A DNA stretch of 64,000 nucleotides from an uncultured Haloferula sp. (lineage in GTDB: Bacteria; Verrucomicrobiota; Verrucomicrobiia; Verrucomicrobiales; Akkermansiaceae): contig CBFGTS010000006.1 of the NCBI GenBank assembly GCA_965652295.1, positions 192,001-256,000 of the forward strand. The letters are read 5' to 3'. The position numbers and the translations under genes are program-made. Position 1 is the first letter of the stretch; each line of letters opens with the position of its first letter. Below are positions 33,666-58,971 of this stretch, one piece after another. The notes below the pieces were generated by a model that was not told the DNA's origin, did not search any database, and worked only from the letters and a program-made list of their open reading frames with translations.

Positions 33666-33718
33666 GCAAATCGCAGGAAACGCGCGGCAAGCGAGCGTCC
33701 ATCGTTGGCAAGCCAGCG
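33666..33718 (+). promoter_or_regulatory. Three direct repeats at 21-bp spacing (AraC-type site candidate)
   Basis: GCAAATCGCAG (33666), GCAAGCGAGCG (33687), GCAAGCCAGCG (33708). Confidence 0.65.
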
Positions 33719-33797
33719 TTAGCTGAAACGGGCGCGGCCGGCGCATCGTCCTGCCGTCACCCCGCCATCCCGGCGACGGTGCGAACCCCGACCTACC

Positions 33798-34427
33798 ATG
33801 AAATACCTCATCGCCCTCGTCTCCCTCATCGGCGTCTCCCACGCCGCCGTCCTGCTGGAAAACATCAACCTCCAGAGCACCCAGCAAACCACCACCGTCT
33901 GGACCGACCTCACCAGCGCCAACCCCACGCAGACGCCGGACAGCGGCGACGGCACCATGGCGGTCTCCGGTGCCTTCGGTGCCTCCGCCGGACTCTACAG
34001 CTTCTCCGGCGACTACAGCGCCACCATCGCCCAGTCGGTCGCCTTCGATATCGAATCGATGGTCCTGCAAATCGAAGCCTCACCCAACGGCGAATTCCCC
34101 TACTCCGGCGGCCCTCTTCTCACCCTGACCACCACCTCCGGCACCGAAATCCTCGCCGCCACCAACTACGGTCCCGGCGCGTCCGAAGTCCGCTCCGGCG
34201 GCATGGGTCCCGCCACCTACACCGCTTACGCCTGGCAGTGGGACCTCTCCGGCTATGGCGACACCATCACCTCGGTGAGCGTCGAAACGCCTTTCGCCGT
34301 CCACACCTCGGTCACCGCCGCCCGCATCGACGTGGGCGATTCCTTCAGCCCGGTCGTCGTGCCCGAGCCCTCCGCCACGCTGCTTTCGCTCGCGGGCCTC
34401 GGCTTCGCGCTGCGCCGCCGCCGCTGA
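33798..34427 (+). CDS. PEP-CTERM surface protein
   Basis: Signal peptide; VPEPSATLLSLAGLGFALRRRR. Confidence 0.92.
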   Translation: MKYLIALVSLIGVSHAAVLLENINLQSTQQTTTVWTDLTSANPTQTPDSGDGTMAVSGAFGASAGLYSFSGDYSATIAQSVAFDIESMVLQIEASPNGEFPYSGGPLLTLTTTSGTEILAATNYGPGASEVRSGGMGPATYTAYAWQWDLSGYGDTITSVSVETPFAVHTSVTAARIDVGDSFSPVVVPEPSATLLSLAGLGFALRRRR

Positions 34428-34429
34428 GC

Positions 34430-34461
34430 GCAATCCACCGCTCACAACACGCAACCGACCA
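34430..34461 (+). promoter_or_regulatory. Two direct repeats at 21-bp spacing
   Basis: GCAATCCACCG (34430), GCAACCGACCA (34451). Confidence 0.6.
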
Positions 34462-34502
34462 CTAGCCCGCCGGGCACCGCGCCCGGCAGGCTCCGCGCTC
34501 TC

Positions 34503-35423
34503 ATGAAGCTCCATCCCGTCGCCTTCCTGTCCTTCGCCCTCCCCCTCTTCGCCGGCTCGCCGCCGGATGCCGATCGCGAAGCCATCCTCGCCATGGCCGG
34601 CACGCACACCGTGAACTTCCACTTCGAGGAAAACACGCCGGTCGCCGAAGACTACGAACTCCAACCGAAGCCCTACGACGAGAACGCCACCGAGATCGTC
34701 ACGGTCGTCGAGGACACGCCGACCCGGATCGCGCTCCAGCACCTGCTCGTCGTCCAGGGAAAGGAGAACAAGCCGATGGTGATCAAACACTGGGCCCAGA
34801 TCTGGACGTGGGAGGACACCCGCCTGCTCGACTACACCGGCGAGGACCAGATCCACGATTGGAACATCGTCCACATCACTCCCGAGCAAGCCGCCGGCAC
34901 CTGGACCCAGCTCGTCACACAGGTCGATGACACGCCTCGCTACGAGGGTTATGGTAAATGGATCCACGCCCGCGGCGAAAGCTCGTGGGAGAGCAGCCTC
35001 ACCCGCCGGCCGCTGCCACGACGCGAGTACACCAAGCGCGACGACTACGACTACCTGCTCGTCACCAACCGCCACACGCTCACCAACGAGGGCTGGGTCC
35101 ATTTCCAAGACAACCGCAAGGTCGTGGATCGCGAGGACGAACCCGTTCAGGTCCTTTGTTTCGAAACGGGCATCAACACCTACACCCGCACCGAGAGCCC
35201 GTTCACCGAGGTCGCGATGAACTGGTGGAAGGAACACGGCGAATTCTGGGACGGTGTCCGCAATTTCTGGAGCGAGTCCCAGGACAAGGCTTCCGAGCTG
35301 TTTTCCTACACCACTTCGAAGAACGACAAGTCCCTCAGCAAGCTCCTCGACCAACTCCAGAAAGACAACGCGTCCGCCGAGACCGTCGCCGCCGAGCTCA
35401 CCCCCTTCGTCATCGCGAAATAG
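34503..35423 (+). CDS. DUF6607 family protein
   Basis: DREAILAMAG..VNFHFEE, LQHLLV, IKHWAQIW, QVDDTPRYEGYG, RPLPRREYTKRDDY, GWVHFQDNRK. Confidence 0.85.
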   Translation: MKLHPVAFLSFALPLFAGSPPDADREAILAMAGTHTVNFHFEENTPVAEDYELQPKPYDENATEIVTVVEDTPTRIALQHLLVVQGKENKPMVIKHWAQIWTWEDTRLLDYTGEDQIHDWNIVHITPEQAAGTWTQLVTQVDDTPRYEGYGKWIHARGESSWESSLTRRPLPRREYTKRDDYDYLLVTNRHTLTNEGWVHFQDNRKVVDREDEPVQVLCFETGINTYTRTESPFTEVAMNWWKEHGEFWDGVRNFWSESQDKASELFSYTTSKNDKSLSKLLDQLQKDNASAETVAAELTPFVIAK

Positions 35424-35442
35424 CACCAACTACCACACCCCC

Positions 35443-36090
35443 ATGAGATCCGCCCTCGCCACCGCCGCCGCATTCGGCCTCGTCCTCACTGCCCAAGCCA
35501 CCACCGTCGGCATCCCCGCCGCCGATGGCTCCTACGCCCTGTGGGACACTTTCACCGACGCGAACCCCGGCTACCCTGCCTTGGAATTCAGCGCCGCCAC
35601 TCCCACCGTCGCCTCCACCAGCGACTTCTCCGCGTTGCTTTCCGCGAGTATGGGCGGATCCGTGACCGGCTCGGGTGACCGGATCTACAACGGTGTTGGT
35701 GCCGGCTCCGGAGCGTTCCGCCTCAGCATTGACGGCACCGCCACCAGCCCACTCACGGATCTGATCCTGGTGCTGAAGATGACTCCTCCGTCCAGCGGCA
35801 CCATTCAGGACTTCTTCACCGTCACCCTCGATGGCCATGCCGCGACGGGCTCATACCTTGGAACCACCGGTGAGACGATCGGCGGCGGCGAGATGAGCAT
35901 CATCACCTTCAGTTGGACCGGCCTTTCCATCGCGGCCTCGGAGAACTTCGTGCTTTCCCTCACCAGCCCGGCCGACGGCCACGTCTCGGTGGACTCCATC
36001 CAGCTTTCCCCAGCCATCGTCCCCGAGCCCTCGGTGGCTCTCCTCGGTGGCCTCGGCATGCTGGGCATGCTCCGCCGCCGCCGCTGCTGA
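35443..36090 (+). CDS. PEP-CTERM surface protein
   Basis: Signal peptide; VPEPSVALLGGLGMLGMLRRRRC. Confidence 0.92.
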   Translation: MRSALATAAAFGLVLTAQATTVGIPAADGSYALWDTFTDANPGYPALEFSAATPTVASTSDFSALLSASMGGSVTGSGDRIYNGVGAGSGAFRLSIDGTATSPLTDLILVLKMTPPSSGTIQDFFTVTLDGHAATGSYLGTTGETIGGGEMSIITFSWTGLSIAASENFVLSLTSPADGHVSVDSIQLSPAIVPEPSVALLGGLGMLGMLRRRRC

Positions 36091-36216
36091 CCGGCCTCAC
36101 CTGTCCGTCGCCCCATCACCGCCGCGGACTCCCCCCGGCCGGTGGTGTCGCCTCAGCCCCACGACTCTTTCGCCATCACCCGCCGCATGCGCCGACTCTC
36201 CCGCCTTCAGCTTTCT

Positions 36217-38484
36217 GTGAACGTACCGCGCATCGCGTTCACTTTGCTGGTGCTGGCGCTTCCCACCGTGGCGGAGGATCACTCCTCCGCCACGGTGTCG
36301 GAAGGCCTCGGCCAGCTCGACGAACTGGTCGTCACCGTCGCTTCGCGGAACGAAACCGCGTGGATCGATTCACCGGGCTCGGTGCTCCAGGCCAGCGCCG
36401 AGGACTTGGTCCGTCAAGGCACCTACGATCTCGCCGGCTTCGCCCAATACGATCCCACCGTCAGCCTGCCGTTCGATTTCACCAGTGGCGACGGCGCGTT
36501 CGCCTACGGCCAGAGCGGCTACGGCTCGATCAATATCCGCGGTATCGAAGGCAACCGCATCGCCGTCGAACTCGATGGCATCCGCCAGCCGCCGCAATAC
36601 GTCTCCACCTCCTTCGACATGGGTGCCAGCGATGGTGCCGGCGGCATCGGCCGCGATTACTTCGATCCCGCTATGTTCGAAATGGTCGAAGTTCTCAAAG
36701 GCGGTGCCAGCGCCCTCTATGGCAGCGACGCGCTCGGCGGCGTGGTCGCCTTCCGCACGCCGGCTCCCGATTCCTTTCTGAAAGGGAACAACGCCGGTGG
36801 TCTCCTACGGACGCAGTACTTCTCTGCCAATGATAGCCTCGCCACGCAAGCCGGCGGAGCTTTGCGACAAGACGACACCGCCGTGATGCTGCTCTACGGC
36901 GGACGCTGGGGCGGGGAAACGGAGAACAACGGAAACCTGCCGCCCAATCCCGCCGACTTCCGCTCTTTTGCCACGCTCTTCAAGGCCGAGCACCGCATCA
37001 ACGACCACCTCTTCCGGCTCGCCGTCGAGTTGTTCGAGCGCGAGACCTCCACCGACGCCCGCAGCGCCGTGACCTCCGCCTTCCCGGTCTTCACCGGCCA
37101 CGTCTTCAACAAACAATACCTCGACCGCCAGCGTGTCAGCCTCTGCTGGGACCACGAATCCGGCCTCGACGCCCACCTCTACTGGCAGCACGCCGGTTCG
37201 CGCAGCGTCAACGACTCGGCCTCATTGCCGCTCGTCATCGGCGGCAATCCCATTCCCGGCACCGAACGCACCCGCGAGCAACGCATCACCTTCGATACCG
37301 ACATCGTCGGCCTCTCCACCACAACCCGCCGCGAGTTCACCGGACCATGGCAGCACGGGCACCAACTCACCGCCGGGTTCGAGACCTCGCTTGAGTCCTC
37401 GGAGAACACCTTCGTCCGCTCCGACTCCGGTGCGCCGCTCGATCAGAACCGCACCGGCTTCGCCCCCACCGACACCTTTCGCGCCGGGGTTTTCGTGCAG
37501 GATGAAATCGACCTCGGCAGCGGCTGGTCGCTCACCCCCGGGCTGCGCTTCGACTGGCAGTCGATCGATCCGAATCCGAACGCCGCCTACCTCGAACGTC
37601 TCGCCGCGCTCGGTCGTTTCAGCCAGGATCCGCCCGCCGGTTTCCAGAATCTCGCGGTATCCCCACGACTCGCCATTTCATGGAAACCGGCGGAGCCAGT
37701 CCTCGCCTACTTCACCTACGCCCACGGCGTGCGGAATCCCACCGCCGAAGAGCTTTCGATGGTCTTCGACCACCCCCCGTCCGGCGGCAGCCCGACTGGC
37801 AGCATCACCGTGCCGAACCCGGATCTGGAGGAGGAAACCAGCGACTCCTTCGAACTGGGTGTGAAATCCGAAGGCGCGCCCGGCCGCATTCAAGCCGCCG
37901 CCTTTTACACGCACTATCAGAGTTTCATCGAGAACGGCGTTCCCACCGGCACCGCGCCCGATGGCCGCGACATCCTCACCACGCTCAACCGCGGCGAGGC
38001 CGAAATCTACGGTGTCGAACTCTCCGGCATCCTGGAAGCGGGATACCTTCACCCCGCCGCCGATGGCTGGCAGCTCGGGCTTTCCACGGCCTGGACGCGC
38101 GGCACCAACCTGACCGACGACCAGCCGCTCAACTCCATCGAGCCCATGCAGGCCATCGGTTTCCTCGGCTACGATGATCCTGGTGGAAAATTCGGCGCAC
38201 GCCTCACCGGCACCTGGACGGCGGCGGTCGATCGCATCGATGACACCACCAACCAAGGCACCTACTTCCGCCCGCCTTCCTGGTTCACCCTCGATCTCGG
38301 CGCGTGGTGGCAGCCCACCGAGGACCTCCACGTCCACCTCGGCCTGAACAACCTGTTCGACGAAAAATACTGGACCTGGGGCAGCGTCCGCCGCGGCAAC
38401 GGCCACCTCGGCGGCAGTGCCATCGACGATCGCACCACCGCCCCCGGTCGCAATTTCAGCCTCTCCGTCACCAAGACCTTCTAA
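36217..38484 (+). CDS. TonB-dependent receptor, heme/hemoglobin-receptor type
   Basis: NIRGIEGNRI, EVLKGGASALYGSDALGGVV, RNPTAEEL, PNPDLEEETS, NNLFDEKYW, APGRNFSLSVTKTF; start placed at GTG 36217. Confidence 0.88.
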   Translation: MNVPRIAFTLLVLALPTVAEDHSSATVSEGLGQLDELVVTVASRNETAWIDSPGSVLQASAEDLVRQGTYDLAGFAQYDPTVSLPFDFTSGDGAFAYGQSGYGSINIRGIEGNRIAVELDGIRQPPQYVSTSFDMGASDGAGGIGRDYFDPAMFEMVEVLKGGASALYGSDALGGVVAFRTPAPDSFLKGNNAGGLLRTQYFSANDSLATQAGGALRQDDTAVMLLYGGRWGGETENNGNLPPNPADFRSFATLFKAEHRINDHLFRLAVELFERETSTDARSAVTSAFPVFTGHVFNKQYLDRQRVSLCWDHESGLDAHLYWQHAGSRSVNDSASLPLVIGGNPIPGTERTREQRITFDTDIVGLSTTTRREFTGPWQHGHQLTAGFETSLESSENTFVRSDSGAPLDQNRTGFAPTDTFRAGVFVQDEIDLGSGWSLTPGLRFDWQSIDPNPNAAYLERLAALGRFSQDPPAGFQNLAVSPRLAISWKPAEPVLAYFTYAHGVRNPTAEELSMVFDHPPSGGSPTGSITVPNPDLEEETSDSFELGVKSEGAPGRIQAAAFYTHYQSFIENGVPTGTAPDGRDILTTLNRGEAEIYGVELSGILEAGYLHPAADGWQLGLSTAWTRGTNLTDDQPLNSIEPMQAIGFLGYDDPGGKFGARLTGTWTAAVDRIDDTTNQGTYFRPPSWFTLDLGAWWQPTEDLHVHLGLNNLFDEKYWTWGSVRRGNGHLGGSAIDDRTTAPGRNFSLSVTKTF

Positions 38485-38486
38485 CC

Positions 38487-39269
38487 ATGAAAGTCCCCGC
38501 GCTCCTCCTTCTCCTCGCCGCCGCCTCGCTCCACGCCCAGACACTCACCCCGCTCCAGGACAGCGACGTTTACGCCTACCTCGACCGGCCCACCAGCTCG
38601 GTGGCGACCCTCGGCGTCAGCGCCAGCGGCACCGGAGCCCCCCACTCTCAGCGTTCGTTGATCCAGTTCGATCTCACCGGCGTCACCCTCCCCGCCAACC
38701 AGCTCGGCACCGCCACCCTCCGTCTTTACGTCGTCCAGCCCGATCCGAACTACGGGAACCTTGGTACGGGAGATGTCGGGGTTTTCCGCCAGGGTAGCGC
38801 GTGGTCGGTGGGCACGCTGCGCTGGAGCCACCTCCAGCCCGCGGAGGCGCATGGCACCTTTGCCATCACCGCCACCTCCGGCGACACCTGGGTGGAGATC
38901 GATGTCACAAGTCTCGTCCGCGACTGGCTCGCCGACAGCTCACCCAACCACGGTTTCCTCCTCCAAGCCGCCACCGAGGATCCCGCCACTCTCAACGTCA
39001 CCTTCGCCTCGATGGAGGTCCCCGGTTTCCGGCCGCAGCTCGTCCTCACCAAAGTGGAAGCCACCCCCACCCTCACTATCGAGCGTGCCGGGGAAAACAT
39101 CGTCCTCCGTTGGCCGTCCGCCACCACATGGGTCCTCCAGCAAAGCCCCACCCTCGCCCCCGGAAGCTGGTCCGCCGTGACCGCAGCGTCGGCCAGCGAT
39201 GGCGATGACTCCGTCCTCCACCTCACTCCTTCCGCCACCTCCGCCTTCTACCGCCTGACGCGGCCCTGA
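38487..39269 (+). CDS. DNRLRE/CBM96-like domain secreted protein with C-terminal domain
   Basis: RSLIQFDL, ATLRLY, WVEIDVTSLVRDW..NHGFLL, FASME..PQLVLT; ends AFYRLTRP. Confidence 0.82.
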   Translation: MKVPALLLLLAAASLHAQTLTPLQDSDVYAYLDRPTSSVATLGVSASGTGAPHSQRSLIQFDLTGVTLPANQLGTATLRLYVVQPDPNYGNLGTGDVGVFRQGSAWSVGTLRWSHLQPAEAHGTFAITATSGDTWVEIDVTSLVRDWLADSSPNHGFLLQAATEDPATLNVTFASMEVPGFRPQLVLTKVEATPTLTIERAGENIVLRWPSATTWVLQQSPTLAPGSWSAVTAASASDGDDSVLHLTPSATSAFYRLTRP

Positions 39270-39281: not shown

Positions 39282-41012
39282 TCAGTTGGGGCCGGGATAT
39301 TCGACGCGGGGATCGCTGAGGGTCTTGAGAAAGGCGACGAGGTCCGCGCGCGCTTCCGGAGACAGGTCGAGCCCGCCTGCGGGGTGTTTGGCGAGGTTGG
39401 GATCGAGGGTTTTACCGCGCCGCACGCCGGAGCTGTAGTGATCGACGACCTCCTCCAAGGTGGCGAAACGTCCATCGTGCATGTAGGGCGCGGTGAGGGC
39501 GACGTTGCGCAGGCTCGGGGTGGCGAACTTGAAAGCATCGCCGGGATCGCGGGTGACTGCGGCACGTCCGCGATCCCGACTTTTGGGGGGAAGGCCGTTG
39601 TTGTGGAACTGGTGATCGGTGAAAAGCGCGCCGCCGTGGCAGTGGAAGCAGTCGGCACCGAAGCGGCCGGCGCGCGGCTCGTACTCGGTGAAGAAGAGCT
39701 GGAAGCCACGCTGCTCGGAGGCGCTGAGTTCGGCCTTGCCCGCCATGGCGCGATCGAACTTCGAATCGAAGGAGGTCAGGGTGAGTAGGAAATTCTCGAG
39801 AGCCATGGCGATCTTTTCCTCGTTGGCCTCGAGCGAACCGAAAGCCGCCGTGAGTTCGTCGGCGTAGGCAGCCTCGACTTTCTCAACGACGCGGGGCGGC
39901 GATTCGCCCATCTCCCGCGGGTGGCGCAGCGGCTCGAGAACCTGATCGCGCAGCGAAGGCGAACGGCCGTCCCAGAAGAACTCGCGCTTCCAGGCGAGGT
40001 TGAAGAGCGGCATCGAGTGACGGCGGCCGGCCCGGCCGTGGATTCCGAGGCTGAAGCGGCGGTCATCGGAGAACCCGAGCGCGGGATCATGGCAGCTTGC
40101 GCAGGAGATCTCCCCGGTCCGTGAGAGCGATGCGTCGTGAAAGAGCTTTTTCCCGAGGACGACGCGGCTTTTGAGCAAGGGATTGTCGAGCGGCAACGAC
40201 GGGCGGGGAAAGGTCGAAGCGATCCGCAGAGGAAGAGGCTTGGGATCGGGAGGGAGGTACTTCGGTGTGATCCTCGGTGAGGTGACCGCGGGCGTCGGAG
40301 CAGGTGCGGGGCGCAGGGAAAAGGCGGCGGCGAGGTTCGCGCGGAGCTTGCCAGCCAAAACATCGCCCTTGCCGGAATGCGTGGAATGCCCGTCCTCTTG
40401 AAAAGACAGGGTCAACAAGCGGGACAGATCGAAGTCGAGATGAAGTGCCGCGGCCGAGGGAAGAGAGAGCGACAACTCGACCGGGGTGAGGTTCCAGTTG
40501 TTGGCAAGGTGGAACACGTAGCCGCCGAGTTCGTGATCGGGTTTTCTGTAGCGACCTTCGAGGGCGAGGAAGATATAACCCTGCTGCCAGTTCCAGTGCA
40601 GGCGGTTGAAATTCGGATTGAGCGGATGCCCGCCGGGATAGCTTGCCGGATCGGCGTGGTTGACGTTTTCCGGAAGACCGACGTGGAAGCGCAGGCCGGT
40701 AACGGGCTCGCTCGTGCCAGTCGGCAGCTCGAAGCGGGTGCGGCGTTTCGAAAGATCGATGAAGGCGACGGCTTCCGGAACGGCGTGCCAGACACCGGAG
40801 ACGTCGCGGGTCTCGAAGCCGGAAAGCAAGTAGCTCAGGCGGGTGACGGAGAGCGCATCACCGGTCGGATTTTCATAGCGCAGCGACGAGAGCCGGAGCG
40901 GCTGATCGCCGAAATGGTGGCCGACCTCAACGGTGAGGGCGATCAGCGGCTGGGCGAGCAGGACGAGGCCCGCAGTGGCGAGGGCGACAAGCGAACGCCT
41001 TGGGGAATTCAT
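39282..41012 (-). CDS. Fused MbnP-like domain and MbnH-like di-heme cytochrome c peroxidase
   Basis: LSYLLS, LHWNWQQGYIFLALEG (WxW), then LGKKLFHD..SCASCH, FFWDGR, DCFHCH, FATPSLRNVALTAPYMHDGRF; start 41012 or 41051. Confidence 0.88.
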   Translation of the reverse strand: MNSPRRSLVALATAGLVLLAQPLIALTVEVGHHFGDQPLRLSSLRYENPTGDALSVTRLSYLLSGFETRDVSGVWHAVPEAVAFIDLSKRRTRFELPTGTSEPVTGLRFHVGLPENVNHADPASYPGGHPLNPNFNRLHWNWQQGYIFLALEGRYRKPDHELGGYVFHLANNWNLTPVELSLSLPSAAALHLDFDLSRLLTLSFQEDGHSTHSGKGDVLAGKLRANLAAAFSLRPAPAPTPAVTSPRITPKYLPPDPKPLPLRIASTFPRPSLPLDNPLLKSRVVLGKKLFHDASLSRTGEISCASCHDPALGFSDDRRFSLGIHGRAGRRHSMPLFNLAWKREFFWDGRSPSLRDQVLEPLRHPREMGESPPRVVEKVEAAYADELTAAFGSLEANEEKIAMALENFLLTLTSFDSKFDRAMAGKAELSASEQRGFQLFFTEYEPRAGRFGADCFHCHGGALFTDHQFHNNGLPPKSRDRGRAAVTRDPGDAFKFATPSLRNVALTAPYMHDGRFATLEEVVDHYSSGVRRGKTLDPNLAKHPAGGLDLSPEARADLVAFLKTLSDPRVEYPGPN

Positions 41013-41035
41013 GCCGGCTGAAGCCGGCGTTCCAG
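41012..41035. repeat. Single REP-like palindrome
   Basis: TGCCGGCTGAAGCCGGCGTTCCAG; same CTTCAG/CTGAAG centre as the 610-689 element. Confidence 0.55.
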
Positions 41036-41047
41036 TCCACGGGTGTT

Positions 41048-49910: not shown

Positions 49911-49972
49911 GAAGCGAACTTCAAGAAATCCCTTGCGAAGCTCTGGTACTACTGACCCCTTTCACGACCCCG

Positions 49973-50116
49973 TTCATGCTCCCCATCGCCACCCCGCCGA
50001 ACGCCATCGTCTTCGGCTCCGGCCTCGTCACCCAGCGCCAGATGATGCGGGCCGGGCTGGTGCTCAACCTCGTCTTCGCCGTCCTGCTCACCCTGCTCGC
50101 CTGGTGGCTGCTCTAG
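49973..50116 (+). pseudogene. 3' remnant of a DASS/SLC13 sodium:dicarboxylate-sulfate symporter
   Basis: [33 protein letters not shown] is the family C-terminal signature; the rest of the gene is absent. Confidence 0.85.
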
Positions 50117-50185
50117 TGGCCTCACTCCTTTGTCTGCCAGGCACCCGCGCATCGATCCGCTGACCCCCTTCCCGAGTGACTCAGA

Positions 50186-50199
50186 TGTTCGCTTGAACA
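50186..50199. promoter_or_regulatory. LexA (SOS) box, Verrucomicrobia type
   Basis: TGTTC-GCTT-GAACA about 30 bp upstream of imuA. Confidence 0.9.
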
Positions 50200-50227
50200 T
50201 TTCATCCGCTTGTGTTCCCGTTTCCGG

Positions 50228-50845
50228 GTGACCAAGGCGATTGAGGAACTTCGAAAGGAGATGCGGGAACGTTTCCCGCAGGCGCATGCGTCGCCTCCCG
50301 TGGAGGCTTTCCCGGTTCTGACGCCGGTGGAATGCTTCACCCCGGACCTTTTCCCCGAAGGGGCTCTTTCGGAGGTGATCGGAACCGGTCTTGGCATGTT
50401 GGTCGCCCACCTGCTTGAGAGGGAAAAGGGGGTGGATTTCCCCGAACTGGTGCTGGTGGATAGCGACTGCTTTGATCCCGCTTCGTTCAGCACCGATGCA
50501 TGCTCGCGCCTGCTTTGGGTCCGTTGCGCCACGACCGGCGAGATGTTGAAGGCGACCGACCTGCTGGTGCGGGATGGCAACATTCCCTTCGTGCTGCTTG
50601 ATACCTGCGGGATCGATTGCCGCGAGCTCCACCGCCTGCCCACGGCGATCTGGTGGCGGCTCAAACTCGCGGCGGAGACGACGAATTGCCGGCTCGTCGT
50701 GCTTTCCCTCCAGCCTCACGTGCCGTGTGCCTCACTGCGAATCGCCTTGGAGGCGCGGCTTTCGCTGGAAGATTTCGACCACCCGCGGCGCGGGTTATTG
50801 GAGCGGCTGGAAGTGACGCGCGAAAAGGAACGGAGGCTGGGCTAG
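50228..50845 (+). CDS. imuA: ImuA-like protein
   Basis: FPEGALSEVIG, LVDSDCFDPAS, LLWVRC, KATDLLVRDGN; first gene of the cassette. Confidence 0.8.
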   Translation: MTKAIEELRKEMRERFPQAHASPPVEAFPVLTPVECFTPDLFPEGALSEVIGTGLGMLVAHLLEREKGVDFPELVLVDSDCFDPASFSTDACSRLLWVRCATTGEMLKATDLLVRDGNIPFVLLDTCGIDCRELHRLPTAIWWRLKLAAETTNCRLVVLSLQPHVPCASLRIALEARLSLEDFDHPRRGLLERLEVTREKERRLG

Positions 50846-52314
50846 TGTTCGCGGCCTTGCACCTGGTGGACCTCGTGGCCCTTGCCGCGATGAAGGAATG
50901 CCCGTCCTTGTGGCGAAAGCCTTTCGGCGTGATGGCGTTGCAAGAGAAGGCGCTGGTGGAAAGGGTGAAGCTGCCCCTGCTGGCAGTGAACGACGCGGCC
51001 CGCCGCGCTGGAATCGATGCCGGCTGGCCGCTCAACCGCGCCCTGGTCCGCTGCCCTGACCTCCGGATTCTGCCCCCGCAGCCGCGGCATGAGGCCGCTT
51101 TGCTTGCGGAAATGATCCGTCACGCCGAAACGCTTACGCCGGACATCGAGATCGCGGCACCTGATACCCTCGTGCTCGATCTTTCCCGCGCCACGGCGCG
51201 GCAGAAGGAGCGGCTTGACTGGTTGGAGATGGCCGATGGCGGTGAGCTGCGACACGTCCGAGCCGCCACGCCTGATCTGGCCGCCCTCGCCGTCCGTGCG
51301 GAGAACTGCCACGGCGGGTTTGTCACGGCAGAGTCACTGCATCCCCTGCCGCTGTCCTTTCTCGCGCCGCTTCCCGGAGGGGGCGAGCTGGTGGAGCGCC
51401 TTGAGGACTGGGGGCTCCATACCTTGGGCGAATTCATGAAACTGCCGCATCAGGCGCTCACCGAACGGCTCGGGCCTGTCGCGGCGGAGTGGCACTCCCT
51501 CCTGCACGGGCGAAAGCGGCGGCTGCTCAGACTCCATCGCCCGCCGGAGAGCCTGGCGCAGGAGCTCGATCTCGAACACCCGCTTGCCGAGAGCGAACCA
51601 CTGCTTTTCGCTTTCCAGCGTCTGCTGGGCCCTCTTTCGGCACGGCTGCTCGCCCGCCACGTCGCGGTGCGGGCATTGAGGCTCGGATTCCACTTCGAAG
51701 ATGGGGGGGAGATGTCCCGCACGCTGCGTTTGCCGGAGCCACGAAGCGACGCACTGCTCGATCCCATCCAGCACCTGCTTGATTCCCTGATGCTTCCCGC
51801 TCCGGTTCTGCGCATCACCCTCGATGTCGAAACGTCGGAGCCGGCGGCCACGCAGCGCGATGCCTTCCAACGCCAGCTTCCGCGCCCCCGGCAATGGCAG
51901 GAAACCTTGGCTCGCCTGCATGCCTTGCTGGGCGAGGAGCGGGTGGGCATTCCCGTGCCGTCGGCCGATCACCGAAGCGAGGGCTTTCATCTTCGCCAAC
52001 CAGGGGAGCCGTCCGAGGAAACGGAGGCCTGGCCCTCGTGTCCGGTTCCCCTCCGCCGCTTCCGCCCGCCCTACGAGGTTCACGTCGCCTTTTCTCCGGG
52101 ACCGACACCGCTTGCCATCATCTCCGGGCCTCACCGGGGTGAGATCCTGCGTTTCCGCGGGCCCTTCCTCCACTCCGGTCAGTGGTGGGATGAAACGGAA
52201 GCGTGGAAACAGAGAGAGTGGGACATCCAGCTCGCCGCCGGACTCTTCCGCCTCACCCACCGACCACCCGGGCAATGGCGTCTCGAAGGCTGCTACCAAT
52301 TTTCCCCTCCATGA
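50845..52314 (+). CDS. imuB: Inactive Y-family polymerase ImuB
   Basis: AVNDAARRAGIDAGWPL..ALVRCP, LVLDL, WGLHTLGE, RGPFLHSGQWW. Confidence 0.88.
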   Translation: MFAALHLVDLVALAAMKECPSLWRKPFGVMALQEKALVERVKLPLLAVNDAARRAGIDAGWPLNRALVRCPDLRILPPQPRHEAALLAEMIRHAETLTPDIEIAAPDTLVLDLSRATARQKERLDWLEMADGGELRHVRAATPDLAALAVRAENCHGGFVTAESLHPLPLSFLAPLPGGGELVERLEDWGLHTLGEFMKLPHQALTERLGPVAAEWHSLLHGRKRRLLRLHRPPESLAQELDLEHPLAESEPLLFAFQRLLGPLSARLLARHVAVRALRLGFHFEDGGEMSRTLRLPEPRSDALLDPIQHLLDSLMLPAPVLRITLDVETSEPAATQRDAFQRQLPRPRQWQETLARLHALLGEERVGIPVPSADHRSEGFHLRQPGEPSEETEAWPSCPVPLRRFRPPYEVHVAFSPGPTPLAIISGPHRGEILRFRGPFLHSGQWWDETEAWKQREWDIQLAAGLFRLTHRPPGQWRLEGCYQFSPP

Positions 52315-55300
52315 TGGCTGAATTCCACGCCCGTTCCGCCTTCTCCTTCCTGCGCGGAGCCAGCCAGCCCGAGGTGATGGTCCGTCGTGCCGCCGAACTG
52401 GGTCTTTCGTCCATCGCCTTCACCGATCACCATGGGCTTTACGGGTCCGCCCGTGCCCACCACGCCGCGCAGGAATGCGGTATCCGCGCCCTCGTCGGCG
52501 CCACCGTCGAGATCGGGGGCGCCCCCGTACCCCTCCTTTGTTCCACGCGGACCGGCTATCGCACGCTTTCCCGGTATCTCACCAATCGCCACCTCGGTGC
52601 CCTCGCGCCGCACGCCCGGCTTGATGGCGGCGACCTCATCGCACTCACCGGTGACCGGGAGGGCCCGGTGATCCGCCACCTGCTCCGTGATGACCGCAAG
52701 GCCGCGCTGCAAGCCGCGCAGGGGCTCGTCGAACTTTTCGGTCACGGCAATGTTTACGTGGAAATCCAGCGCCACGGTTTGCGCGATGACGGGCGTCTCG
52801 GCCGCCATCTCATCGACCTCGCCGCGCATCTGAAGCTGCCGCTGCTCGCGACGAATGCGCCGCTCCATGCCGGGCGGACGGATCGCTTGCTCGCCGATGC
52901 CTTCACCTGCCTGCGCCACCACCTTCCGCTCGATCAAGCCGGGCGGCTGCTCGCCCCGAATGGCGAGCGGCACCTCAAGCCCCCTTGCGAGATGGCCCGC
53001 CTCTTCGCCGATCTGCCCGAGGCCCTGGCAAACATCCGCCGCCTCGATGAACGTCTGGGTTTCACGCTGCACGACCTCGGTTACCGTTTCCCCGACTTCC
53101 TGGGTGAGGATGGGAAACCGATGTCCCTCTCCGAGCAAACCGTCCTCTTGCGCCAACGCAGTCTGGAAGGAGCCCGGGAAAGATACGGCAAACCTCGTAG
53201 CGAAGCGCTCGCCCAGATCGGCAAGGAGATCGATCTCATCGACCGGCTTGGATTTTCCGGCTATTTCCTCATCGTCCAAGACATCGTCCGCTTTGCCCGC
53301 AGCCAGGGAATCCTGTGCCAGGGCCGCGGTTCGGCGGCCAACTCGGTCGTCTGCTTCGCCCTCGGCATCACGAATGTCGATGCCTTCCACCAACGTCTCG
53401 TCTTCGAGCGCTTCCTTGCCGAAAACCAACGCAAGTGGCCGGATATCGACATCGACTTCCCCTCGGGAGAGCGACGCGAAGCCGTCATCCAGTATGTCTT
53501 TCAGAAATACGGAGCCCGCGGCGCGGCGATGACCGCCAACGTCATCACCTACCGTCCGCGCTCCGCTTTCCGGGAAATGTCGAAAGTGCTCGGGTTCCCT
53601 CCTTCGTTGGCCGATCGGTTTTCCACGCAGGGGTATCACTCGCAACACGATGACAAGGAGGACCGTGATATCTTCGGCGGGCTGATCCCACCCTCGCATC
53701 CGCGGGCGGGGGCCATGGAGAAACTCTACCAGGCCGTGCTCGGCATGCCCCGCCACCTCGGTCAGCATTCGGGCGGGATCATCATCTGCGATCGCGGGCT
53801 GGATGAAATCGTCCCCATCGAACCCGCCACCATGCCCGGACGCACCGTCGTCCAGTGGGACAAGGACGACTGCGAAGACCTCGGCATCGTCAAAATCGAC
53901 CTCCTCGGCCTCGGCATGCTCGCCGCGATGCAGGATGCGTTCGCGCTTTGTGAAAAGCGCGGCCGACCCATCGACCCCGCCCGCATTCCCCTCGAGGACC
54001 CCGCGGTTTATGAAATGCTTCATCGTGCGGACACGGTCGGCACCTTTCAGATCGAGTCGCGCGCCCAGATGGCCACCTTGCGCATCCTGCGGCCGAACCA
54101 TTTCTACGAGCTCGCCATCCAGGTCGCCATCGTCCGCCCCGGCCCCATCGTCGGCGACCTGCTCCATCCCTATCTGCGGCGACGCAATGGATTGGAGCCC
54201 GTCGATTGCATCCACCCCGATTTTGAACCCGTGCTGGCCCGCACCCTCGGAGTGCCCCTGTTTCAGGAACAGGTGCTCAAGATGGCCATGATTCTCGCGG
54301 GCTTCACCGGCTCAGAGGCGGATGATCTGCGCCGTGCCATGTCCTTCAACCGCACCGATGAGCGGATGAAAAAGGTCACCGCCAAGCTGCGCGAGCGCAT
54401 GGTGCAGGCCGGCGTGGCGGAGGAGGTGCAGGAAAAACTCGTCCATGCCATCGGAAACTTCGCCCTCTACGGGTTTCCCGAAAGCCACGCGCTGGCCTTC
54501 GCGCTCATTGCCTACCATTCGTGCTGGCTCAAGGTGCATTTCCCGGCCGAGTTCTTCACCGCGCTCCTCAACAACCAACCGATGGGCTTCTACTCGGCTC
54601 ATTCACTCTTGCAGGACGCGCGCCGCCACGGCATCCGTGCGCTCCCCGTCTCCTGCGTTCATAGTAGCAGGGAAGCCGAGGTCGTTGATGACCGGACCAT
54701 CCGCGTGGGACTGGCGCAGCTCAAAGGCTTGTCCGGGCACACCCTCGAACGACTGCTCGTCCAGCGGCAGCTGCGCGGCTTCGAACATCTGGAGGATTTC
54801 CTCCGCCGCGTGGCACCGAATGAGCGCGAACGACGCCTGCTGGCCAAGGCCGGGGCGTTCTACGATCTTCCTGACAAGCCTCATCGCCGCGAAGCTCTTT
54901 GGCAGGTGGAACTGCCGCTCCACGACGACCTCATCTCCCCTGCCACGCCCGCTGCCTCCCCGGCGGTTCTTCCAGCCATGTCGCTGAACGAGCGGCTCGC
55001 GGCCGACCTCTCGACCCAGGGCCTTTCCACCGGCCCCCACCCCATGAAACTGTGGCGGAAATCCAGCACGCTCCGGCTCGTCGATGCCCGAACGCTGCAA
55101 ACGCTGCCGCACGGCAAACGCATCCATGTTGGAGGGCTCGTCATTTGCCGCCAGCGTCCCGGCACCGCGAAGGGACATTGCTTCATTTCACTCGAAGACG
55201 AAACGGGCATCCTCAGCCTTTTCGTCCCCCGAAGAACCTTCGAGGAGCTACGGCGGGTGATCGTGAGCGAACCCTTTCTCCAAGCCTCCGGCAGGGTTCA

Positions 55301-55400
55301 GATTTCCGAGGGCCACCAGCGGACGGTCTATGTCACCGGCATCGCCCCACTTCCGGGAGCTCACCAAGAGCACCAGGGGCACTCACACGATTTCCATTGA
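52311..55400 (+). CDS. dnaE2: Error-prone DNA polymerase DnaE2
   Basis: HARSAFSFLRGAS, QGRGSAANS, PDIDIDF, PRHLGQHSGG, QWDKDD, FQIESRAQM, YGFPESHA, RQRPGTAKG; ends SHDFH. Confidence 0.97.
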   Translation: MMAEFHARSAFSFLRGASQPEVMVRRAAELGLSSIAFTDHHGLYGSARAHHAAQECGIRALVGATVEIGGAPVPLLCSTRTGYRTLSRYLTNRHLGALAPHARLDGGDLIALTGDREGPVIRHLLRDDRKAALQAAQGLVELFGHGNVYVEIQRHGLRDDGRLGRHLIDLAAHLKLPLLATNAPLHAGRTDRLLADAFTCLRHHLPLDQAGRLLAPNGERHLKPPCEMARLFADLPEALANIRRLDERLGFTLHDLGYRFPDFLGEDGKPMSLSEQTVLLRQRSLEGARERYGKPRSEALAQIGKEIDLIDRLGFSGYFLIVQDIVRFARSQGILCQGRGSAANSVVCFALGITNVDAFHQRLVFERFLAENQRKWPDIDIDFPSGERREAVIQYVFQKYGARGAAMTANVITYRPRSAFREMSKVLGFPPSLADRFSTQGYHSQHDDKEDRDIFGGLIPPSHPRAGAMEKLYQAVLGMPRHLGQHSGGIIICDRGLDEIVPIEPATMPGRTVVQWDKDDCEDLGIVKIDLLGLGMLAAMQDAFALCEKRGRPIDPARIPLEDPAVYEMLHRADTVGTFQIESRAQMATLRILRPNHFYELAIQVAIVRPGPIVGDLLHPYLRRRNGLEPVDCIHPDFEPVLARTLGVPLFQEQVLKMAMILAGFTGSEADDLRRAMSFNRTDERMKKVTAKLRERMVQAGVAEEVQEKLVHAIGNFALYGFPESHALAFALIAYHSCWLKVHFPAEFFTALLNNQPMGFYSAHSLLQDARRHGIRALPVSCVHSSREAEVVDDRTIRVGLAQLKGLSGHTLERLLVQRQLRGFEHLEDFLRRVAPNERERRLLAKAGAFYDLPDKPHRREALWQVELPLHDDLISPATPAASPAVLPAMSLNERLAADLSTQGLSTGPHPMKLWRKSSTLRLVDARTLQTLPHGKRIHVGGLVICRQRPGTAKGHCFISLEDETGILSLFVPRRTFEELRRVIVSEPFLQASGRVQISEGHQRTVYVTGIAPLPGAHQEHQGHSHDFH

Positions 55401-55680: not shown

Positions 55681-56589
55681 TCACGACCCTTCACGCTTCC
55701 CACTCCGCCCCCACTCGCCCGGGGACTTTCCGGTTTCCTCGCGGAAGGCTTTGGCGAAATGACTGAGGCTTTGGTAGCCGACTTCGAGCGCCACTTCGGT
55801 CACCGTCGCACCGTTCACGGAAAGCAGTTCGCACGCATGCGCGATGCGGATTCTCCGCAGGTGTTCGCGCAGCGTTTGTCCGGTGCGCTGCTTCACCATC
55901 CGGCTGAGGTGGGTGGGCGAGACCCCACACTCGCGCCCCAGGGACTGGAGATCCATCGGCTCCGCGAGCCGCGCCTCCAGCACGCCCAGGGCCCGCATCA
56001 CCGGATCGGTGCGGCTGCGGATGGCGTGGCAAAAGCCCGCACCGGCATCGGACCGGCCGGTCCGGAAAAGCCTCACCGCGGCCCACTCCAGCACCCGCGC
56101 CTCGACCCGCAATGCCTCCGAGGGGCCCTTGCCGGTCAAGCCGCGCAATCCATCGAGCAGCTCTTTTTCCGGACGACTCATCAACCCCGCGAACGCGATC
56201 TTCCCCCCGCCCCGCAACCATTCCGCGAAGCGCGGATGCACGTGCCGGCTGCTATCGCCGAGCCTGCGCGCGATCCATGCCCGGGAAATCACCACCACCT
56301 CCGCCTCGTGACTGCCGGGCAGTCGCGTCCAGCGCCACTTCTCCTCCGAATCCTCGCCGAAAATCGCATACATCCCCGGCCGCAGGAACATCCGGTCCTC
56401 CGCCCCCCAGATCACCCCCTCGCCGGAGCCATTCAGCCACAGCCAGATCTCCCCGGAAATCCTTGTCTGCCAAGTGCTACCCGCATGCACAGACCTCCCC
56501 GCCAGCCGCCAGCACGACAAGCCTCCGAGATCCATCCAGCGTTCCAGCTCCACGCGACGCTTCATTTCACAATCGGAGATGACGCGCAA
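55681..56589 (-). CDS. AraC family transcriptional regulator (PchR-like architecture)
   Basis: C-terminal HTH LGRECGVSPTHLSR..VTEVALEVGYQSLSHFAKAFREETGKSP; start uncertain. Confidence 0.92.
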   Translation of the reverse strand: MRVISDCEMKRRVELERWMDLGGLSCWRLAGRSVHAGSTWQTRISGEIWLWLNGSGEGVIWGAEDRMFLRPGMYAIFGEDSEEKWRWTRLPGSHEAEVVVISRAWIARRLGDSSRHVHPRFAEWLRGGGKIAFAGLMSRPEKELLDGLRGLTGKGPSEALRVEARVLEWAAVRLFRTGRSDAGAGFCHAIRSRTDPVMRALGVLEARLAEPMDLQSLGRECGVSPTHLSRMVKQRTGQTLREHLRRIRIAHACELLSVNGATVTEVALEVGYQSLSHFAKAFREETGKSPGEWGRSGKREGS

Positions 56590-56597
56590 AAGTTTTT

Positions 56598-56617
56598 ATT
56601 GCGACTCAGTCGCATTT
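56598..56617. promoter_or_regulatory. Perfect 7-1-7 palindrome, Fur-like box
   Basis: ATTGCGACT-C-AGTCGCATTT in the short divergent intergenic region. Confidence 0.65.
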
Positions 56618-56634
56618 AAGCTTGAGTCCTCGCC

Positions 56635-57021
56635 GTGACGCCAGCCGATCTTCACCGCCTGCTCGCCTCCGTAACGCCATCGACCTCCGAGGGGGCCGAT
56701 CAGTTGCTGGATCTGCGCGAGCTGCTTCTTTCCCGCGGCCACGCCGGCAAGTGCGTCCGCTGCTTCTTTGGGCTGCTGGGCGACCTCCGCCAACCGGGAG
56801 CCCTCGCTCCGCTCCGCCACTGGCTCGAGCATCATGTGGAGGTGGAAGTAACGGCGGACGGACGGGAGATCGACACACTGCCGGTGCGCCTCGACCGCGC
56901 GGCGGATCTCGTCAGCTTCTGCCACCAGGCCATCGACACGGTCCGCCACGACCGGTCTTTTGAAGATCGCAGCATCAAGCTGAGTTTCCGTTTCAAGAAC
57001 GCCGTCGCGACGACCTCCTGA
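56635..57021 (+). CDS. Hypothetical protein with HxxxCxxC motif
   Basis: 128 aa, GHAGKCVRCFF, FCH. Confidence 0.75.
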   Translation: MTPADLHRLLASVTPSTSEGADQLLDLRELLLSRGHAGKCVRCFFGLLGDLRQPGALAPLRHWLEHHVEVEVTADGREIDTLPVRLDRAADLVSFCHQAIDTVRHDRSFEDRSIKLSFRFKNAVATTS

Positions 57022-57135: not shown

Positions 57136-57333
57136 ATGAAAACCACCACTCAAACCAAAGCCTGCGGCGATTGCATCCACTGGAATGCCGGCGCGGAAGA
57201 AGAAGGCGAATGCCGCCGCCACGCTCCGCAGATGATCGCCTTCGAAGTGGACGAGGAAGTCCACCTCGAGTCCCGCTTCCCGATGACCGCCGCCGATGAC
57301 TGGTGCGGCGACTTCGAGCCCGAGCAGAAGTAA
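57136..57333 (+). CDS. Small four-cysteine protein, HiPIP-like Cys spacing
   Basis: CGDCIHW..GECRR..FP..DDWCGDF; no signal peptide. Confidence 0.78.
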   Translation: MKTTTQTKACGDCIHWNAGAEEEGECRRHAPQMIAFEVDEEVHLESRFPMTAADDWCGDFEPEQK

Positions 57334-57355
57334 GCCGCTGCCGAAGCTTCTCCCC

Positions 57356-57390
57356 AAGCCCGCCTCCGATTCCGGAGGCGGGCTTTTTTT
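57356..57390 (+). terminator. Intrinsic terminator
   Basis: AAGCCCGCCTCCG-ATTC-CGGAGGCGGGCTTTTTTT. Confidence 0.9.
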
Positions 57391-57419
57391 GTCCCGCGCC
57401 CTCAGGAGACGGGGAAAAA

Positions 57420-57451
57420 GCAATCCACCGCCCGAAACGCGCAAGCCAGCG
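57420..57451 (+). promoter_or_regulatory. Two direct repeats at 21-bp spacing
   Basis: GCAATCCACCG (57420, identical to 34430) and GCAAGCCAGCG (57441, identical to 33708). Confidence 0.65.
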
Positions 57452-57490
57452 CGCGCGCGCCGTGACTCCCTGCGCCAGGTTCCGGGCCGC

Positions 57491-58153
57491 ATGGGGATCT
57501 TTCCACGACATTCCGGCCCACCGCCCTTGCCGCCGGTATTTCGCAGCGCGGTGACCATTGGGGAAATCCTGCCGCTGCTGCCGGACACCGCGCGGATCGT
57601 CCTGCGGGCGGCAGGCATCGCGCTTTCCAAGGTCACTTCGCTCACCGCCGGGCACCACGGCCTCCAACTCGACCCGGGAGCCGGCCTCGGCGTGCATTTC
57701 CTCCGCTGCCCGGTCGATGCCTCCCTGACGTGCGCGCTACGGGGGGCATCCCACCACACCCCGCTTTCCCTTCATTTTCCCGGCACCGCTTGGGAATCGC
57801 CCGCGACCCGCCAGCTTCTCAACCGCTGCAAGGCCATTCCGACCGCGGCACCGGGAATCTGGTCGACCGGTGCCGGTGCGTGGCTTGACGAAGGCCTGCG
57901 CGACGACCTCCGCATCCAGAGCGAGATGCTCTATCTCCTCTCCCTGCTCGACGAGTCCCGCACCGTGAACGTCCACGCCGTCGCCGCCGGCTGCTCGCTG
58001 GAAGCCAGCTTCCGGCCGACTTTCATCGACCTCGATGGCAGCCTGCTCCGCATCGCTGATCGCCACGGGCAACATGCCATCTACCTCCACCCCGAACGCA
58101 TCCGCGCCCGTCAGGACCGCCATCAACTGCATCTCCACTCGCTCCCCGCATGA
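57491..58153 (+). CDS. Hypothetical protein, possibly a degenerate HemS-like fold
   Basis: ATG 57491; ATGA overlap with the next gene; partial resemblance to its downstream neighbour. Confidence 0.6.
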   Translation: MGIFPRHSGPPPLPPVFRSAVTIGEILPLLPDTARIVLRAAGIALSKVTSLTAGHHGLQLDPGAGLGVHFLRCPVDASLTCALRGASHHTPLSLHFPGTAWESPATRQLLNRCKAIPTAAPGIWSTGAGAWLDEGLRDDLRIQSEMLYLLSLLDESRTVNVHAVAAGCSLEASFRPTFIDLDGSLLRIADRHGQHAIYLHPERIRARQDRHQLHLHSLPA

Positions 58154-58971
58154 CTCCTCCCCTGCTCGAACGACCCATCCGGCTCGATACAAAAGCCTCC
58201 GACCTCCTCCCGGCTCTCGCCTCCTTCGGACCCTTCTGCCTTCAGGCACGGACCCGTCACCTCCAGCTTTCCGTATGGGGCGATCCCGCGGAAACCCTCA
58301 TGACCACAGGCCCCCGGGCGTGGTTTCCCGCCCTCGGGCTTGAGATCAACCGCGACTTCATCGCCGCCGTCCATGCCAGTCCGCTGCCCACGCTTCCGGA
58401 TCACGCCGGCATCGTCGAACTCGACTCCGGCGACGGCCGCGGCCGCGTGGGCTTCGCGGTCGGGACCGAATCCACGTCCCGCGACCGGTTCCACCGCCTC
58501 ATCGGGGACTTCGGCCTGGAGGAAATCGAGAGCCGCCACCTCATCGAGTGGCGTCGGGGCCTCGACGCCGGATTCCAGATGTGCCCCTGCTGTCAGCAAG
58601 CGGCCCTCGAGCGCCGCGAACGCCCCGACCTCCATCCACTGACCGACATCCTCACCCATTGCGCCCAGCTCGACCTCGAGTTGCTCGTCGAGTTCGGCGA
58701 CGAAATGTTCTCGCTCTCCACCTTTTTCGTGCCAGGCGACCTCGACACGCGCGGAGCCATCACCGTCACCTCGGCGGATGAAAAAGGGATCCTGCGCATC
58801 GACCCCTTGCTCCTCCACGCCCTGTGGATCCTGCCGAAAGCCATCGATGGGGAACTTCGCACCGTGCTCCAGGCCTTCGACCCCCTGGGGCGGCGGATTT
58901 TCTCCCTGTCCTGCCCGGATGCCGACCAAATCCTCCCGTGGCAGGACTACGCCCGCGCCTTCTACGGCTGA
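58150..58971 (+). CDS. Divergent HemS/ChuS-like two-domain protein
   Basis: LLPALASFG..ARTRH, RFHRLIGDF, LTDILTHCAQLDLELLVEFGD, ALWILPKAIDGELRTVLQAFDPLGRRIFSL..PWQDY parallel the HemS repeats. Confidence 0.6.
   Translation: MTPPLLERPIRLDTKASDLLPALASFGPFCLQARTRHLQLSVWGDPAETLMTTGPRAWFPALGLEINRDFIAAVHASPLPTLPDHAGIVELDSGDGRGRVGFAVGTESTSRDRFHRLIGDFGLEEIESRHLIEWRRGLDAGFQMCPCCQQAALERRERPDLHPLTDILTHCAQLDLELLVEFGDEMFSLSTFFVPGDLDTRGAITVTSADEKGILRIDPLLLHALWILPKAIDGELRTVLQAFDPLGRRIFSLSCPDADQILPWQDYARAFYG

Follow-up and report, generated by a model that had tools for sequence, protein, structure and literature searches.

Three genes or operons in a stretch of verrucomicrobial DNA are preceded by short direct repeats exactly 21 bp apart, which raises the question of whether the repeats define one regulon and, if so, what binds them and what they control. 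The stretch, called here the window, comprises 64,000 nucleotides (G000:C6:192001-256000) of a 4.37-Mb genome with 63% G+C, and the nearest named homologues of the encoded proteins belong to Haloferula and Luteolibacter (Verrucomicrobiota). The original prediction, made from the window alone, postulated a heme-acquisition regulon with a cascade running from a Fur-like repressor through an AraC-family regulator to heme uptake genes. Comparison with relatives, whose genomes and loci are cited by handle (G..., L...), supports such a putative cascade by the conserved sites, the linkage of araC to them, a Fur-like box at araC only and the promoter geometry. The reading preferred here, with a probability of roughly 0.74, is that Fur represses araC and that AraC activates three promoters whose genes serve to capture, import and handle heme. 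Computation shows the sites and their conservation, the period of 21 bp, a -10-like hexamer at constant distance, the linkage to araC, the presence of the Fur-like box at araC but its absence from the targets, and the homologies.

The repeats had been described as 11-bp units at seven positions. Five of them (33687, 33708, 34430, 57420 and 57441) match GCAANCNANCG exactly, and the claimed identities across about 23 kb are correct (57420 equals 34430, and 57441 equals 33708). The unit at 34451 has one mismatch, and the sequence at 33666, GCAAATCGCAG, has three and can be considered at best a degenerate third half-site with GCAA kept and CG lost; half-site arrays of three to four units do occur in relatives. 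The unit length had to be revised, as the real half-site covers about 16 bp (GCAA-N5-CG-NNAGC) and recurs with a 21-bp period. The refined element reads GCAA-N5-CG-(C/T)(C/T)A(A/C), five free bases, GCAA-N5-CG-NNAGC.

The lone 11-bp unit was rejected as a signal, its frequency being at chance level (7 matches versus a shuffle mean of 3.1, with 5 of 100 shuffles reaching 7). The whole genome contains 148 exact units but 7 pairs (at most one mismatch, spacing of 11-40 bp), and the three pairs spaced by 21 bp are the three window sites. Because this count is circular, the pattern having been derived from those same sites, a matrix was built solely from relatives, using 39 sites from their loci gathered with a relaxed form of the original pattern, a few chance rows included. 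All site scores given here are in bits and come from this matrix, and the window sites were outside its training set. In the genome-wide scan the three window sites took ranks 1-3, site 2 with 40.3, site 1 with 34.0 and site 3 with 28.9; the fourth match (C3:245173, 22.8) lies inside a coding sequence and was rejected. The peak score was 14.0 in the reversed and 11.6 in the complemented genome, and matrices with periods of 18-20, 22-24 or 31 bp peaked at 22.0 or less, so that only the 21-bp period exceeds 22.

The sites are also conserved upstream of orthologous genes in relatives. An unseeded Gibbs search of 160-bp regions ahead of 16 DUF6607 genes of relatives, selected after matrix hits were known there, recovered the motif in 16/16, at 70-77 bp before the start codon in 13, with an information content of 39.4 in comparison to 14.9-15.3 for shuffled sequences. 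In the final set of 95 sites (52 in an earlier set), 77 have a gene of the RhuH, PEP-CTERM, HX, CbiX-like, secreted-partner or AraC family within 1.5 kb. In several genomes sites precede orthologues of the HemS-like genes HX1 or HX2 on separate contigs, and in G021 and G032 an extra site stands ahead of a CbiX-like chelatase and a PepSY protein.

The position of the sites relative to predicted promoters was examined in the same sets. In 42 of the 52 sites of the earlier set and in 67/95 of the final set, a hexamer nAnnnT begins 19-20 bp beyond the second half-site; the counts at ten other offset pairs are 0-12. Two of the window's starts, those of the DUF6607 gene (rhuH-like, see below) and HX1, are nearly leaderless, with ATG 9-10 bp after the predicted hexamer. 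A -35 hexamer placed 17 bp upstream of the predicted -10 would cover the final 3-4 bases of the site. Class II activators of the AraC family have a proximal half-site overlapping the -35 element, and the spacing between site and hexamer fits this geometry. A scan for the sigma-70 consensus found no consensus promoter at the three sites. The terminator-like hairpin at 57356-57385 lies ahead of site 3, and HX1-HX2 therefore need a promoter of their own. Direct-repeat half-sites are called typical of AraC proteins in the accessible part of one report (PMC3900636). The sites are taken to be conserved promoter elements, and a dimer of the AraC protein encoded at 55681-56565 is the likely binder.

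The araC gene and its Fur-like box, predicted to lie near the third site, are in place, about 0.85 kb from it. The deduced regulator combines a C-terminal double helix-turn-helix domain (PF12833) with an N-terminal sensor domain, in which His86 is present in 20/21 and His110 in 18/21 aligned sequences; the N-domain alignment contains no invariant Cys-Pro or Tyr. In the window araC and the DUF6607 gene are 20 kb apart, and in 18 of the 20 same-genus relatives that have both on one contig the distance is 6 kb or less. The block between them (39282-55400) is not present between these genes in relatives and contains no site in the matrix scan; it was rejected as a part of the regulon. The span 33666-58971, originally taken as one system, thus has to be reduced by these approximately 16 kb.

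Co-occurrence of the exact pattern and the regulator was followed within the genus (35 genomes). The pattern was found in 21/24 AraC-positive versus 2/11 AraC-negative genomes, and a backwards control pattern in 1/61 genomes. The three AraC-positive misses comprise G002, in which the locus is cut at a contig end, G034, which has matrix sites of 27, and G007, with no operon beside araC. The two AraC-negative exceptions are G009, which is 61% complete, and G004, which retains a deletion relic (L147:8700-9050). In this relic the deletion has brought together araC and the DUF6607 gene at their 5' ends: a Fur-like box and about 34 araC codons are fused to the rhuH-like gene's first codons, and the paired site is intact; site and Fur-like box survive on either side. 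In some relatives paired sites face araC itself (L091:12467, L148:16560, L151:9938, L166:1774), which hints at autoregulation; there is none in the window. Many relatives also encode proteins of about 200 aa that match only the N-terminal half of AraC (L042-L056), possibly stand-alone sensor domains.

The Fur-like box between araC and the divergent orf128 has its core at 56600-56614, with the consensus TGCGA(C/T)TnA(A/G)TCGCA, and a similar box is present in 20/26 araC loci of relatives; the search pattern was drawn from these same boxes. A matrix made from the relatives' boxes gave 7 genome matches with araC at the top. Among the others are boxes ahead of genes for a PepSY membrane protein and two TonB receptors and ahead of an ORF (open reading frame) that begins like a FeoB-type GTPase, and none of these other Fur-box genes carries a paired site in the matrix scan. 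The genome holds three Fur paralogues. Judging from the box, araC is probably iron-repressed. All three target promoters have negative scores for the Fur-like box, and iron control of the targets would therefore be indirect. Two small genes, orf128 (with a His/Cys motif) and a gene for a 65-aa protein, neither with a family match, travel with araC, and Fur-like boxes stand before them in relatives; in L186 an orf128 relative appears beside a ferritin-like gene.

A link to heme comes from the DUF6607 protein. Its AlphaFold model (predicted local distance difference test, pLDDT, 91.8) superimposes on RhuH of Riemerella anatipestifer (PDB 8XJC) with template-modelling scores of 0.83/0.92 and 35% identity, with Z 34.7 and a root-mean-square deviation of 1.8 A over 275 residues, the next chain having Z 10.2. 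The comparison of hidden Markov models gave E 8.5e-91. RhuH is described, in the part of the paper available, as a secreted protein that binds heme with a dissociation constant of 3.4e-11 M, takes it from hemoglobin and needs His96, its other heme contacts being derived from a model; homologues were reported there in Flavobacteriales (PMC11967795). This His96 is kept in 22/22 aligned DUF6607 proteins, in which the KHW motif aligns. Arg146, Tyr147, Arg174 and Gln202 are likewise invariant (22/22) and represent four of the five modelled propionate contacts of RhuH (Arg143, Tyr144, Arg170, Arg183 and Gln198). The fifth, Arg183, corresponds to Val187 in the window protein and to Val, Gly or Ala in the aligned set. 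The N-terminus resembles a signal peptide, judged by sequence only. The assignment of DUF6607 to the RhuH hemophore family is solid as far as model and sequence comparison go, and because of it the link of this regulon to heme is stronger than the original prediction could tell.

Homologues of DUF6607 were found in Verrucomicrobiota, Planctomycetota, Pseudomonadota and Myxococcota. In loci of other lineages (25 of 80 gene-called, 17 long ORFs tested) 13 TonB receptors were recognised, 12 of them over the heme-receptor cut-off, and HmuY, SOUL, DUF2470 and a HemS fragment were seen near DUF6607; the non-verrucomicrobial loci had no matrix site above 22. The genus also commonly carries another DUF6607 type, which is longer and about 42% identical, AraC-less genomes included (e.g. 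L080:13659-14786, L131:5048-6280). In Planctomycetes (L193, L200, L207, L209, L222, L226) PEP-CTERM, prepilin-like and DUF6607 genes form one run, mostly behind a Fur-like box, with no AraC or motif within the stretch examined.

The receptor of the operon narrowly exceeds the cut-offs of two heme models (TIGR01785, 319.4 vs 316.85; TIGR01786, 341.8 vs 323.75) and stays below that of the siderophore model (TIGR01783, 141 vs 223.5). TIGR01785 has 15 matches in the genome, with the window receptor alone over the cut-off, and the best PDB match is PhuR (E 4e-72). Heme receptors carry a FRAP...NPNL loop motif. VRNP and NPDL of the window receptor align with FRTP and NPNL of PhuR, a variant form of this motif. 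The two PEP-CTERM proteins flanking the rhuH-like gene product in gene order form one family and are its only members among the 53 PEP-CTERM-tailed ORFs of the genome; W35 is conserved in 52/52, Y67 in 51/52 and H169 in 38/52 family sequences. In fold searches the best matches of protein 1 were generic jelly-roll or carbohydrate-binding module (CBM) domains with Z of 10.3 or less, Foldseek gave no match at E <=0.001, and no hemophore (HasA, HmuY, HphA, others) was among the matches listed. Heme binding by these proteins is offered only as a hypothesis, because the fold is a jelly roll like that of carbohydrate-binding modules.

The genes behind site 3 had been called a HemS-like pair, which holds directly for HX2 as a distant HemS homologue and for HX1 only by way of its paralogy to HX2. 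A profile of 92 HX2 sequences reached E 1.5e-6 to 1u9t/4cdp and 1.4e-4 to HemS 2j0p, with both halves aligned; with HX2 by itself, or with 14 sequences, no HemS chain was among the PDB matches. HX2 is below the PF05171 cut-off, 2/92 homologues match this model at E <=0.01, and the Atlas match scored 0.95 but with the recognition value under the mark. In HemS the linker holds the heme histidine. The HX2 region matching this linker is unaligned and carries the conserved CPCC. No Pfam, NCBIfam, Atlas or PDB match was obtained for HX1.

The remaining heme metabolism was surveyed with family models. Those for HemE, ferrochelatase (PF00762) and heme oxygenase had no match in the genome, and PF00762 matched in only 2/61 genomes searched in the order. 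Heme auxotrophy, considered on these grounds, is unlikely because HemB, HemC, ChdC-like, AhbAB-like and CbiX-like genes are present; this gene content suggests that heme is made by a siroheme-type route with ChdC.

According to the preferred reading, iron shortage would cause Fur to leave the araC box, and an AraC dimer would then occupy the paired half-sites, overlap the -35 region and recruit RNA polymerase. The PEP1-rhuH-PEP2-receptor-DNRLRE operon would be activated from two promoters and HX1-HX2 from the third. The secreted hemophore would capture heme via His96 and hand it to the receptor for import, and HX1/HX2 may hold or process it in the cytoplasm. That the N-terminal domain of AraC senses heme or a heme product is the least certain part of the scheme and is proposed tentatively, at somewhat less than even odds. 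The features involved are collected in Table 1.

Table 1. Features of the predicted regulon and adjoining genes (positions in the window)
Feature	Position	Strand	Remarks
Degenerate, possible third half-site	33666..33676	+	3 mismatches; 3-4-unit arrays in relatives
Site 1, two half-sites at 21-bp period	33687..33723	+	Matrix 34.0
Predicted -10 hexamer CATCGT, 20 bp after site 1	33744..33749	+	Positional enrichment
PEP-CTERM surface protein 1, predicted jelly-roll domain	33798..34427	+	TIGR02595; model pLDDT 89.6; W35, Y67, W148, H169 conserved
Site 2, internal promoter site of rhuH-like gene, most conserved site in relatives	34430..34466	+	Matrix 40.3
Predicted -10 hexamer CAGGCT, 10 bp before ATG of rhuH-like gene	34487..34492	+	nAnnnT position
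DUF6607 protein, RhuH homologue	34503..35423	+	His96, Arg146, Tyr147, Arg174, Gln202 conserved
PEP-CTERM surface protein 2, of one family with protein 1	35443..36090	+	
TonB-dependent heme/hemoglobin-type receptor	36142..38484	+	Start codon uncertain, 36142-36250
Secreted DNRLRE/CBM96-domain protein, last operon gene	38487..39269	+	Follows same receptor in relatives
AraC-family regulator, 294 aa, proposed cognate activator	55681..56565	-	PF12833; linkage in relatives
Fur-like 7-1-7 palindrome between araC and divergent orf128	56596..56618	.	Top of 7 genome hits
Conserved 128-aa protein (orf128), adjoins araC, not behind motif	56635..57021	+	No family match
Conserved 65-aa four-cysteine protein	57136..57333	+	Neighbour of araC or HemS-like genes
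Terminator-like hairpin, between 65-aa gene and site 3	57356..57385	+	
Site 3, ahead of HX1-HX2	57420..57456	+	Matrix 28.9; sites precede orthologues on other contigs
Predicted -10 hexamer CAGGTT, 9 bp before HX1 ATG	57476..57481	+	nAnnnT position
HX1, 220 aa, paralogue of HX2	57491..58153	+	hhalign 88.6%, E 2.6e-6, 191 columns
HX2, 273 aa, distant HemS-family homologue	58150..58971	+	Conserved CPCC motif

Several observations weigh against a dedicated heme regulon controlled by this AraC protein. A 42.9-bit site in G020 precedes an FhuA-like siderophore receptor, and in G023 a weak site heads HX2, an FhuA-like receptor and an esterase, with a separate 37-bit site preceding a hydrolase; G020 and G023 are the only genomes with a siderophore-type receptor as target. 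In seven loci (L078-L083, L155) the interval from the rhuH-like gene to araC holds a secreted protein and/or a prepilin-like gene in place of a heme receptor, and for 18 of the 95 sites no regulon gene was recognised within 1.5 kb. The N-terminal domain of AraC has no sequence match to any solved structure. A pure heme version is further weakened by the lack of an inner-membrane heme transporter or heme oxygenase in the regulon, the two weak FecCD matches of the genome both lying outside it. Outside the genus, where at most 19 AraC candidates were scored per genome, the exact pattern occurs in 14/41 AraC-positive and 10/65 AraC-negative genomes. Of the AraC-positive, pattern-negative loci, 8/11 are without a matrix site above 22 and the other 3/11 have one. 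Finally, the relatives are kin, their counts are not independent, and the loci were picked around these very genes.

Outside the genus, 12/12 exact matches from AraC-negative genomes have scores of 1-21, and neither a -10 nor a regulon gene is near them; in AraC-positive genomes 13/17 loci score at least 23, of which 9/13 precede a RhuH-like, PEP-CTERM, HX2 or TonB gene.

The same AraC protein and sites could operate without heme sensing, as a general iron-starvation amplifier or in response to another ligand (xenosiderophore, porphyrin), giving a mixed iron-scavenging regulon with heme genes in the majority. This is possible, although we give it a clear minority of the weight. The sites before an FhuA-like receptor in G020, a hydrolase and a TonB gene, the operons devoid of a heme receptor and the missing invariant Cys-Pro or Tyr in the sensor domain are all in agreement with it, but the concentration of 77/95 sites near the families listed above, the lack of a site at the other Fur-box genes and the near-invariant His86 and His110 argue against it.

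It is improbable that some other protein, be it a different activator or an alternative sigma factor with its gene elsewhere, binds the sites and that araC is only a Fur-regulated neighbour. The genome carries at least 12 AraC-like ORFs, the AraC homologues of some genera have no sites nearby, and four sites scoring 26-36 in AraC-positive genomes have no recognisable gene downstream (L263:3388, L264:3330, L265:3514, L275:7396), these four being possible relics or small-RNA promoters. Against such a factor stand the araC linkage in 18/20 relatives, the co-occurrence in 21/24 versus 2/11 genomes and the joint loss in G004; two like half-sites at a 21-bp period with a separate -10 also misfit the -35/-10 pair of a sigma factor.

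Repression by AraC, either relieved by heme or shutting the genes off as with IurV of Vibrio cholerae, whose deletion raises iron and heme uptake genes according to the available portion of the source (PMC7600106), seems quite unlikely. The overlap of the site with the predicted -35 would suit a repressor, but the lack of a consensus sigma-70 promoter at the sites is what is expected of activator-dependent promoters, and a Fur-repressed repressor would turn uptake off during iron shortage. Chance matches or remnants of local duplication, which the chance-level frequency of the lone unit and the mismatched 33666 might suggest, are already refuted by the conservation with variable spacers across genomes, the genome-wide rank and the controls.

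A bolder version of the activator scheme would make AraC a one-component heme sensor acting through its N-terminal histidines, with a surface relay of the RhuH hemophore and a new class of PEP-CTERM-anchored jelly-roll heme binders (conserved Tyr67/His169), a Cys-rich HemS offshoot as cytoplasmic acceptor, self-induction in Verrucomicrobia, which would thereby scavenge environmental heme, and a version without the AraC tier in Planctomycetes; as a whole it is doubtful.

The surroundings of the regulon contain other units. Just 5' of site 1 lies the gene for a 2908-aa secreted protein (24375-33101) with DUF5122 propellers, Ig and Calx-beta domains. Products encoded on the minus strand of 39282-49745 are a fusion of MbnP-MbnH type, one protein each of the YHYH, PA14/DUF6288 and PEP-CTERM kinds, and a di-heme enzyme, the second that is MauG-like; the block may be a module for copper or another metal that was inserted between operon and araC. 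An imuA-imuB-dnaE2 mutagenesis cassette occupies 50210-55400. At 59075-63113 a cobalamin riboswitch precedes genes for a PEP-CTERM protein with DUF4465 and for a TonB receptor; this unit likewise pairs a surface protein with a receptor, for another tetrapyrrole.

The literature search, which left subscription journals largely uncovered, found no description of this motif, regulator or DUF6607, and the term AraC was absent from the text available of the heme reviews searched by term. The assignments made here would give a function to a family labelled DUF, DUF6607 being the RhuH hemophore family and reaching beyond Flavobacteriales. For the predicted regulon there are now a Fur-like box and a precise predicted binding site, and its phylum is one for which no prior paper on this system was found. 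The PEP-CTERM family, the CPCC-bearing HemS offshoot and the CbiX-like protein are nominated as heme-handling candidates. If heme is indeed the effector, an AraC protein joins the ECF (extracytoplasmic function), LysR and HemP factors controlling heme uptake.

Among known systems, HX2 resembles HemS/ChuS/PhuS in aligning to both halves of HemS-family chains, but differs in falling under the Pfam cut-off, in its CPCC in the unaligned linker and in the company of a diverged paralogue, HX1. The SphR regulon of Pseudomonas aeruginosa, as far as the accessible text describes it, is likewise a small AraC regulon with three promoters and paired direct repeats, but SphR responds to sphingosine, not heme, and its motif is unrelated (PMC3900636). 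Heme uptake genes also have a second, iron-controlled regulatory tier in HurI/HurR (ECF), HupR (LysR), HemP/HmuP and Irr, which belong to other protein families in the parts of the sources at hand (PMC3792355, PMC11442138).

The closest counterpart of the target genes is rhuH-rhuR-rhuA of R. anatipestifer, with which the window shares the fold and family of the hemophore, His96, four of five modelled propionate contacts, a signal-peptide-like N-terminus and an adjacent heme receptor (8XJC; available part of PMC11967795). In that species Fur controls a bidirectional promoter directly according to the same text, whereas here control appears to pass through AraC (PMC11967795). The window system further differs by Val187 in place of Arg183, by RhuA not being seen, by the PEP-CTERM proteins and by its verrucomicrobial host.

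The closest counterpart of the control circuit is found among the AraC activators of siderophore uptake, PchR, AlcR, YbtA, MpeR and DesR, as named in the accessible part of one source (PMC7600106). By description, these share with the window an AraC gene beside the TonB receptor that it would activate and an iron-linked regulation. PchR/AlcR/YbtA-type regulators are themselves repressed by Fur. Their defining siderophore target is absent here, where the genes controlled would encode a hemophore homologue, HemS-like proteins and a receptor of heme type; the window's target promoters are without a Fur-like box, and the motif is new. The role of AraC proteins in uptake has so far been known with siderophores only, and the gene content of the window makes heme the likely object here. 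The regulon is judged real and appears to be hitherto undescribed, a PchR/AlcR/YbtA-like cascade applied to heme.

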